64,000 bases of DNA from Escherichia coli (GTDB taxonomy: Bacteria; Pseudomonadota; Gammaproteobacteria; Enterobacterales; Enterobacteriaceae), in assembly GCF_013122565.1 (NCBI RefSeq), contig NZ_CP053258.1. One strand, given 5' to 3'. Positions 53,705 through 54,630 of the stretch are shown here, piece by piece. The position numbers and the translations under genes are program-made. The number at the start of each line of letters is the position of its first letter. The first letter of the stretch is position 1. The notes below the pieces were generated by a model. The model made no database searches. It was not told the DNA's origin and saw only the letters and a list, made by a program, of their open reading frames with translations.

Positions 53705-54001
53705 AGTCCCAAAAGCAGTTTTCAATGATAAATAAATGGCAATTTTTACAAAGAGATAATAACGTAGATTGAAACGATATGTATTATTGATTGAGTAAAC
53801 GGGATTATTCTTCACACTACATCCATTTTGCTGTCACTACCAAAGTAAAAGGGGCTACGCTTTCACGTAACCCCTTGATTTATTTGATGTGTTGGCGGTG
53901 TCTGAACTGGTGCTGTAATTGGTTGAAATATTTCATCTAATGTCTGGTTCAACTTTCCTTAGCTGCCTGAAAGTTTTCTGATCTTACCCAGCAATAACAG
54001 C

Positions 54002-54064
54002 GTTACGGTGCACCACGCCTGACTGAAGAACTGCGTGCTCAGGGTTACCACTTCAACGTAAAAC
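54002..54064 (+). mobile_element. IS3-family transposase (OrfB) fragment
   Basis: Translates to [21 protein letters not shown], matching the start of IS3-type OrfB as I recall it, then diverges; no inverted repeats or complete ORF. Confidence 0.55.
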
Positions 54065-54135
54065 CGTGGCAGGAGGTCCGGACTGAAAAAACTGCTCAGG
54101 ACATTATCGGCAGGGTACGCACTGGTAGTCTGTAA

Positions 54136-54230
54136 ACTGAACCGACTGGGGCGCAGTATGTGGCATCTTGTCGTGCTGTTGGAGGAGCTGTGCGGACGTG
54201 GTATTAACTTTCGTGCTCTGGCCCAATCTA
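54136..54230 (+). pseudogene. pinH: Pin/Hin-type serine recombinase (DNA invertase) fragment
   Basis: Translates to LNRLGRSMWHLVVLLEELCGRGINFRAL, resembling the conserved core of serine invertases/resolvases; no start and truncated. Confidence 0.55.
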
Positions 54231-54630
54231 TATTTGCCCAACAATGGGGGGACGGAAGCTGTAAAAGTAAAATAATCTGCGATCTCAGATTTATTGAGTG
54301 ATTTTTATGTGAGCAGAAGATATTCATCAGAAACGATTATGTAAATCATTTTATTTTGCCGACTGCCTGATTGTCGAAAGAAAAGAATACGCCCGTGTTT
54401 CCTGAATAGATTGACTTTTTTATCCAACCACACTTCAGCGCACTGCGTTTAAAAAATGCCTCATTCTTATGCGGAATATCATCATTTCATCATGATGTCT
54501 TTGATGAGCGGTGAACACAATACACTTGCGCTGTCTCTTCAGGATGAATCCCCTGGTCTGGTGCCTGTGGGCTGATGTTGCAGCAAAGCTAAGGTCGCTT
54601 AAACGCTACTCAGTATTCACTTTTCAGAGG

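Follow-up and report, generated by a model that had tools for sequence, protein, structure and literature searches.

The window, by which we mean the whole stretch of 64,000 nucleotides that we analysed, comes from an Escherichia coli-type chromosome and carries the gene order ileY, ypjCB, a short composite scar, ypjA/ehaD, ssrA and smpB (Table 1). The left neighbour of the scar, ypjCB, is one intact gene here, whereas ypjB and ypjC occupy this place in K-12. No prophage is present at ssrA within the window, in contrast to K-12, where CP4-57 follows ypjA. The DNA between 49 and 54 kb is AT-rich, with 30-41% G+C, as expected of acquired DNA. Among 5426 complete E. coli genomes, the best identity is 99.1% for core genes beyond ssrA and 96.8% for the surroundings of the scar, and these values place the strain in a lineage outside that collection.

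Between ypjCB and the scar, the left flank of the relic is unique sequence and contains a terminator-like hairpin. When positions 53500-54800 were compared with Rfam, the only hit was a match of this hairpin to a Bradyrhizobium sRNA, which was below threshold (20.5 bits, with 39 required) and was dismissed. On the other side of the scar, the upstream leader of ypjA is identical at 311 of 351 positions (89%) to NC_000913.3 1223215-1223564. The paralogous K-12 region is itself upstream of another autotransporter pseudogene, and it gives a second match in most E. coli genomes. RNA folding of the conserved leader gives no signal (z = +0.48).

Table 1. Features of the ileY-ssrA interval in window coordinates, with the positions at which full-length IS3 copies were found in other genomes.
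Feature	Position	Strand	Description	Basis
ileY	51538-51613		tRNA gene with CAT anticodon	
ypjCB	52370-53704	+	Intact, 444 aa; left neighbour of the scar	ORF list; PGAP YpjCB / DUF5507 at orthologous loci
Hairpin	53849-53876	+	12-bp GC-rich, terminator-like; ~145 nt past the ypjCB stop	Terminator scan
IS3 left inverted repeat tip	53979-53996	+	IS3 nt 1-18, TGATCTTACCCAGCAATA	18/18 identity
IS3 orfB (insF) internal fragment	53997-54070	+	IS3 nt ~544-618, codons ~62-86 of 288	blastn
Junction	54071-54073		3 bases (AGG)	IS3 similarity ends ...CCGTGGC at 54070; invertase begins at 54074
Span equivalent to pinH (b2648)	54062-54301	+	Stop-to-stop open frame	Collinear alignment
Serine DNA invertase internal fragment	54074-~54256	+	Pin/Gin/Hin type; PinE codons 42-~102 of 184	DNA, protein, Pfam
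ypjA upstream leader	54260-54610	+	Paralogous to the K-12 ymgI-ymgJ-ycgI region	
ypjA/ehaD	~54641-59220	+	Adhesin-like autotransporter; right neighbour of the scar	ORF list, PGAP
ssrA	59381-59743	-	tmRNA, directly after ypjA	ARAGORN
Live IS3	54013	+	1 genome; right flank foreign	
Live IS3	54048	+	1 genome; right flank foreign	
Live IS3	54122	+	2 genomes, different alleles; target duplications CGG and CTG	
Live IS3	54478	+	1 genome; simple insertion	
Live IS3	~54032	-	1 genome; right flank is a truncated integrase	
Live IS3	~54123	-	3 genomes: two fetched, right flank foreign; H154 inferred from identical match span	
Live IS3	54164	-	1 genome; right flank is a truncated integrase, then ssrA	

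An IS3 stub fused to an internal invertase fragment

The segment from 53979 to 54259 (281 nt) is made of two pieces on the plus strand, a stub of the insertion sequence IS3 and, joined to it, the middle third of a DNA invertase gene of phage type. We interpret it, with a probability of about 0.93, as a composite, inert scar that separates ypjCB from the ypjA leader within the variable ileY-ssrA interval. A preliminary description of this DNA had reported two recombinase remnants on the same strand at 53990-54330, and had read them as a decayed junction of an IS3-family transposase with a Pin-type serine invertase in which neither part has a start or a full domain. The remnants and their shared strand are borne out by DNA and profile matches well beyond chance, and the decayed state by the truncation of both fragments. 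The limits needed adjustment on both sides, and the last 70 bases of the interval originally given belong to the ypjA leader.

Members of the IS3 family carry terminal inverted repeats (5'-TG...CA-3') at both ends, an orfA-orfB gene pair with a programmed -1 frameshift, and a DDE (rve) domain, and their insertion gives a 3-bp target-site duplication, as seen here for live IS3 copies nearby (CGG, CTG). The stub keeps 92 of 1258 nt and has neither orfA nor the frameshift site; it also lacks the DDE domain and the right repeat. Its first 18 nt, TGATCTTACCCAGCAATA, match without exception (18/18) the left ends of IS3 on pCP301, on an E. albertii plasmid and in live E. coli IS3 copies; if the same positions are instead read as IS3-internal sequence, 10 of 18 match (comparison by hand). 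Thus the earlier view that terminal repeats are lacking is wrong, since the left-repeat tip lies directly 5' of the OrfB piece. No IS3 right repeat occurs anywhere in the 64-kb window. The window also contains no other pieces of IS3.

The orfB piece is recognized mainly at the DNA level. Positions 53984-54070 align by blastn to IS3 nt 531-618 (88 nt) in three IS3 copies, with 91% identity to the pCP301 IS3 ORF2 fragment, 90% to an IS3-family copy on an E. albertii plasmid and 89% to K-12 IS3A; E-values are 5e-25 in a plasmid database and 2e-30 in a pairwise comparison. In a three-frame translation of 53900-54400, one frame yields a 22-residue OrfB peptide. Its match to Pfam HTH_21 is weak and below the family cut-off (E=5e-4, profile positions 19-41 of 60), and NCBIfam transpos_IS3 is matched at E=0.032. 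The frame is broken by a 1-nt deletion in an A-run (GTAAAAACC -> GTAAAACC). No rve domain is matched, and only ~25 codons of the HTH_21 region are left. This piece had been taken for the start of OrfB; it corresponds instead to codons ~62-86, in the N-terminal HTH region.

The stub is therefore an internally deleted IS3, in which nt 19-~543 are missing and nt 619-1258 have also been lost. IS3 nt ~544 follows immediately on the repeat tip, and the breakpoint falls within an imperfect 13-nt self-similarity of IS3 (repeat TTACCCAGCAATA versus internal TTACCCGGTCAAA). Having kept 18 nt of one end and lost both the transposase and the right end, the stub cannot transpose. Its divergence of ~11% from live IS3 means that the stub either is old or derives from a variant IS3; live copies within the same strains are 99.9-100% identical to one another. 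A 7-nt flank, AGTTTTC, is common to the window and the E. albertii plasmid IS3 copy, and was treated as a chance match, the best of ~2500 places; at this spot, most E. coli alleles read TTTTT, not TTTTC.

To the right of the AGG junction, positions 54074-54220 share 84% of their nucleotides with e14 pinE and phage invertases across 141-147 nt (E-values 5e-36 in a phage database and 3e-41 pairwise), and the fragment is similarly close to invertases of P2-like coliphages. The encoded protein is identical to PinE at 41 of 56 residues (73%) over PinE positions 39-94. The Pfam Resolvase family (PF00239) is matched with E=9.5e-10 and 39.2 bits, against a cut-off of 23.3, although only over profile positions 48-103 of 145. 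Comparison of the translated fragments with protein families thus places the invertase part above its family cut-off and the transposase part below. A 54-residue invertase peptide occurs in another frame of 53900-54400 than the OrfB peptide. The invertase core had been proposed earlier with a length of about 30 codons; the core is indeed present, but it spans about 55-60 codons.

The right edge of the invertase fragment is less sharp than its left edge. Clear similarity reaches codon 94 (~54232) and is followed by a degraded tail (CAATGGGGGGACG vs CAATGGGACGC) up to about codon 102, or ~54256; comparison by hand gives residual similarity, CAATGGGACG, to the same point. Since the 27 bases from 54233 to 54259 have only degraded similarity to pin codons 95-102, the right breakpoint is uncertain by ~25 nt. 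No similarity is found past about PinE residue 102, and the ypjA leader follows.

Compared with PinE of the cryptic prophage e14 and with Pin, Gin, Cin and Hin of P2-, Mu- and P1-like phages, about one third of the gene is left. PinE residues 1-41, including the catalytic Ser9, are absent, and so are helix E and the C-terminal HTH. Within the part that remains, the window has substitutions at several conserved positions (D56Y, W61C, D64N and R71W in PinE numbering). D64 has become N in all seven aligned alleles and R71 has become W in six of the seven, while position 56 is Y, N, K or D, so that conserved residues are replaced differently between strains.

In Pin, Hin, Gin and Cin systems, an invertible segment bounded by inverted 26-bp crossover sites lies next to the invertase gene. 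Here the invertible tail-fibre segment and the crossover sites are missing. There is no AAACCNNGGTTT-type hix/gix crossover core within 3 kb, the nearest being at 50642; no inverted repeats suited to bracket an invertible segment occur in 53600-54700; and the window contains neither similarity to the e14 or P2 tail-fibre inversion modules nor further pieces of invertase. The proposal that an inversion system has decayed at this place is accordingly narrowed to a fragment of the invertase gene, with no crossover site, bounding inverted repeats or tail-fibre remnant. Lacking the catalytic serine, the DNA-binding domain and crossover sites, the fragment cannot invert DNA. None of the results speaks for a function of the scar.

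Relationship to pinH and history of the scar

The invertase part of the scar is already annotated in K-12 MG1655 as the pseudogene pinH (b2648), a correspondence that the preliminary description did not recognize. Judged from the collinear alignment of 821 nt, which is 96.0% identical to K-12 and 96.8% identical to strain LHM10-1 and has the same neighbours in both, the two fragments are orthologous. The K-12 pseudogene (NC_000913.3 2783065..2783304, minus strand, mapped through this alignment) lies at the same place between ypjB/ypjC and ypjA, has the same orientation relative to ypjA and is likewise truncated at both ends. Differences from it are allelic only, such as G-Y-A in the window versus G-N-A in K-12 at PinE residues 55-57. 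In five further strains, PGAP places a 'recombinase family protein, incomplete' here, with the N- and C-terminus missing. The IS3 stub is also present at the K-12 locus but has no feature in the RefSeq record, nor has it one in any of the annotation records examined.

The region containing pinH was deleted in the reduced-genome strain DGF-298 (PMC10652928), and is therefore dispensable. In papers on E. coli, the name pinH occurs in gene lists or denotes the invertase of O157 prophage CP-933H; the 'PinH' of O157 proteomics is this unrelated, intact enzyme (PMC3936929). A literature search under the locus tag b2648 returned nothing relevant.

The whole 821-nt segment is found in one piece in 3002 of the 5426 complete E. 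coli genomes, with 90.6-96.8% identity to the window. Seven divergent alleles, chosen to span this range of identity, were aligned, and the junction of the repeat tip with orfB, the junction of IS3 with the invertase and the right boundary are identical in all seven. The scar thus predates the divergence of those alleles. Among the seven, 17-22% of the columns vary in the scar, compared with 15% in the left flank and 9.7% in the leader next to it. The 57 variable sites over 53959-54327 are divided 20/19/18 by codon phase, so that no frame on either strand is under purifying selection and the DNA is drifting neutrally. Some alleles also carry indels and a frameshift.

Outside E. coli, a search for the exact junction pattern in 100,044 species-representative genomes returned two E. 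coli-like contigs only, a weak negative because matching was exact. The two contigs, in a Terrisporobacter assembly and a Planococcaceae metagenome-assembled genome, are collinear with the window at 96% and 94% identity, and are most likely contamination. A fuller progenitor, in which IS3 would continue past nt 18 at the same site, was not found; full IS3 copies at the locus are separate, later insertions with their own ends.

The best-supported account of these features is that the scar arose from at least three illegitimate deletions, although we infer their order and mechanism, as well as the derivation of the invertase from a phage. An invertase gene of the Pin type, acquired from a phage, would once have stood upstream of ypjA, with a copy of IS3, inserted into it or close to it, on its left in the same orientation. 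One illegitimate deletion may have removed IS3 nt 19-~543, with its breakpoint in the 13-nt self-similarity. A second deletion could then have extended from IS3 nt 619 through about codon 41 of the invertase gene, and a third from about codon 102 up to the ypjA leader. By the time the present alleles of the ypjA locus diverged, the resulting scar was already fixed, and its drift since then has been neutral.

Strain differences and live IS3 copies

The preliminary description proposed that the relic may explain differences in gene content between strains. This is contradicted by the identical junctions in all seven alleles and by the presence of the segment in one piece in so many genomes: because the relic is the same wherever the segment exists, it does not account for how strains differ. 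Differences at the locus come instead from replacement of the whole segment, from prophages at ssrA and from insertions of live IS3 with associated deletions. About 2300 genomes are without the whole ypjCB-pinH-ypjA segment, and in an ST95 strain, for example, its place next to ssrA is taken by a type II restriction-modification system and lambdoid prophage genes. An ssrA-integrated prophage is present in K-12 and many other strains, and ypjA abuts ssrA in 1384 genomes.

Live IS3 copies were sought with chimeric queries that join the left flank to an IS3 end in both orientations. They detected a live IS3 within ~640 nt in five genomes for each orientation. In all 10 the full-length IS3 is less than 500 bp from the old IS3 end, and nine of these genomes were fetched (Table 1). 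In six of these nine, the DNA past the live IS3 is not the ypjA side of the locus, and in two it is a truncated prophage integrase. This indicates that IS3-associated deletion or rearrangement removed the 3' part of pinH and ypjA. IS activity therefore does shape local gene content, via live IS3 copies and not via the relic.

Perhaps live IS3 inserts preferentially into the scar, which would thereby drive recurrent loss of the adhesin gene ypjA. If so, IS3 would be drawn in by the shape of the local DNA or by the old IS3 end, and deletions would start from the scar repeatedly. Five genomes have a full IS3 at a 3-4 bp target, 54120-54123, inside the dead invertase fragment (two on the plus and three on the minus strand, H154 being inferred). 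Control queries gave similar counts, with four genomes (and at least two more at 78% coverage) when anchored in ypjCB and three when anchored in the 5' part of ypjA. The scar is thus not clearly hotter than its dispensable neighbours, the remnant IS3 end was rejected as a special attractor, and we consider such a preference improbable. The island as a whole tolerates IS3, and repeated use of 54120-54123 is a small curiosity.

Regulatory, coding and prophage alternatives, and significance

The ypjA start codon is 380-660 nt downstream of the scar, which 3002 genomes have kept, and this position and persistence might be expected if the scar had acquired a cis-regulatory role for ypjA. Hin and Gin invertase genes contain a Fis-dependent enhancer in their 5' part, and co-option could take the form of Fis sites from such an enhancer, an AT-rich spacer bound by H-NS, or a promoter on the IS3 end. 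However, the scar is more variable than either the leader or the left flank, and contains no plus-strand promoter-like sites. Moreover, the scar is missing from the paralogous ymgJ-ycgI leader, and live IS3 copies interrupt the scar in several strains. Regulatory co-option is disfavoured on these grounds, and we regard it as very unlikely.

A live small gene that overlies or includes the remnants is less probable still. The candidate frames are an antisense ORF of 122 codons (53959-54327, minus strand), a sense frame of 79 codons (54062-54301) and an ATG-initiated sub-ORF of the latter (54158-54301). In six of the seven alleles no stop interrupts the antisense frame over ~123 codons, which could be taken as weak evidence of a gene; in one strain PGAP predicts a 53-aa 'hypothetical protein' on the antisense strand, and two minus-strand promoter-like sites (54377-54317) are located just upstream of the antisense start. 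Two such sites are nevertheless about what shuffled sequence yields (2.5 expected), and the even spread of variable sites over the codon phases is that of DNA without purifying selection. The antisense frame also varies in length: a 1-nt indel shortens it to 94 codons in RIVM_C039205, and in CE0032f it continues for 144 codons. Its product has no match in Pfam and a single one in NCBIfam, at E=0.049 and 12.3 bits against a cut-off of 438.7 bits. The wobble positions of this frame coincide with those of the old sense frame. Given the lack of phase bias, the frameshifted allele and the absence of a significant family, we take the antisense ORF to be a shadow ORF and not a real gene. The sense frame, for its part, has lost conserved residues of the catalytic domain and is frameshifted in one allele.

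That the fragments are the edge of the ssrA-integrated cryptic prophage CP4-57 of K-12, and not an older independent scar, was considered because ~5 kb, including ypjA, is all that separates K-12 pinH from the annotated CP4-57 end, but in its present form this reading is refuted by the prophage-free window, where ypjA is followed directly by ssrA and yet the scar structure is identical, by the 1384 genomes in which ypjA abuts ssrA and by the K-12 annotation, in which CP4-57 ends before ypjA, leaving it a negligible chance.

The original observation of an IS3-invertase junction is therefore correct but ordinary, and its importance is small: the invertase fragment already has a pseudogene name in the best-annotated of bacterial genomes, and it is routinely picked up by automated pipelines. 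What the present analysis adds is the unannotated IS3 stub, made up of a left-repeat tip and InsF codons 62-86, together with breakpoints at the nucleotide level and the extension of the invertase piece right up to the ypjA leader. It further adds that the scar is older than the divergence of the alleles at this locus and evolves neutrally. The open antisense frame over the scar is a caution to annotators, and the scar itself could be of use as a small neutral marker in tracing how the variable ileY-ssrA region evolved.

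Sequence turnover between ileY and ssrA

The ileY-ssrA interval (window 51600-59300) is a replacement hotspot. In E. coli ST95-32, genes for a type II restriction endonuclease and for a cytosine methyltransferase, along with lambdoid tail genes, take the place of the window's ypjCB-pinH-ypjA, and the sequence common to the two restarts just a few bases past the ypjA stop codon. Among 5426 complete RefSeq E. coli genomes, identity to the window does not exceed 96.8% for the pinH region (53700-54520) and 99.1% for the smpB-recN core genes (60000-63900). The strain from which the window comes falls outside this set of genomes and may be a Shigella or a member of an unsampled lineage.

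Two contigs from unrelated Firmicutes assemblies are also collinear with this part of the window. One, of 539 nt and assigned to Terrisporobacter mayombei DSM 6539, matches 54051-54589 at 96% identity, and the other, of 2799 nt and from the Planococcaceae MAG UBA3370, matches 51568-54357 at 94%. Both are E. coli DNA, most likely present through contamination or mis-binning.

IS3 copies at the pinH scar and in K-12

Full-length live IS3 copies lie inside or beside the scar, in which an IS3 stub is fused to a Pin-type invertase fragment, in ten E. coli genomes (window 54013-54478; seen in L017-L025, the nine fetched IS3-bearing genomes). Seven distinct combinations of position and orientation are represented among the ten, and the target at 54120-54123 has been hit in both orientations, on different alleles. 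The density of IS3 at the scar is similar to that in two control regions, ypjCB and the 5' part of ypjA. The ypjA side is gone in six of the nine fetched genomes; this loss reaches a truncated integrase in two, and ssrA comes next in one.

The RefSeq feature for IS3A of K-12 (NC_000913.3, 315229) begins at TCTTACCC, which places its start 3 nt inside the TGATCTTACCC end of other IS3 copies. Because the three preceding bases are GCC, not TGA, the left tip of this element may be damaged, or its end may be different.

Genes and leader flanking the scar

Features flanking the pinH scar (window coordinates)
Feature	Position	Description
ypjCB	52370-53704	one intact 444-codon gene
GC-rich hairpin	53849-53876	12-bp stem, AAGGGGCTACG...CGTAACCCCTT; ~145 nt downstream of ypjCB
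ypjA upstream leader	54260-54610	89%-identical paralogue in K-12
WP_001120794.1	54456-54575	PGAP call, 39-aa hypothetical protein; 120 nt, inside ypjA leader

Unlike the gene in the window, ypjCB is divided into ypjC and ypjB in K-12, and in many other strains PGAP reports it as frameshifted or carrying an internal stop. The hairpin is probably the ypjCB terminator. An Rfam match of this hairpin to BjrC68 was sub-threshold and was rejected as spurious.

The K-12 paralogue of the ypjA leader lies in the ymgI-ymgJ-ycgI region, upstream of the autotransporter pseudogene ycgI. The ymgJ frame closes after 11 codons in the window, and RNA folding detected no unusual stability in the leader (z=+0.48). 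Within the stretch called as WP_001120794.1 the paralogues are 96% identical. Since all five differences there are non-synonymous (four at codon position 2, one at position 1), the comparison suggests that this stretch is conserved as DNA or RNA, rather than as protein.
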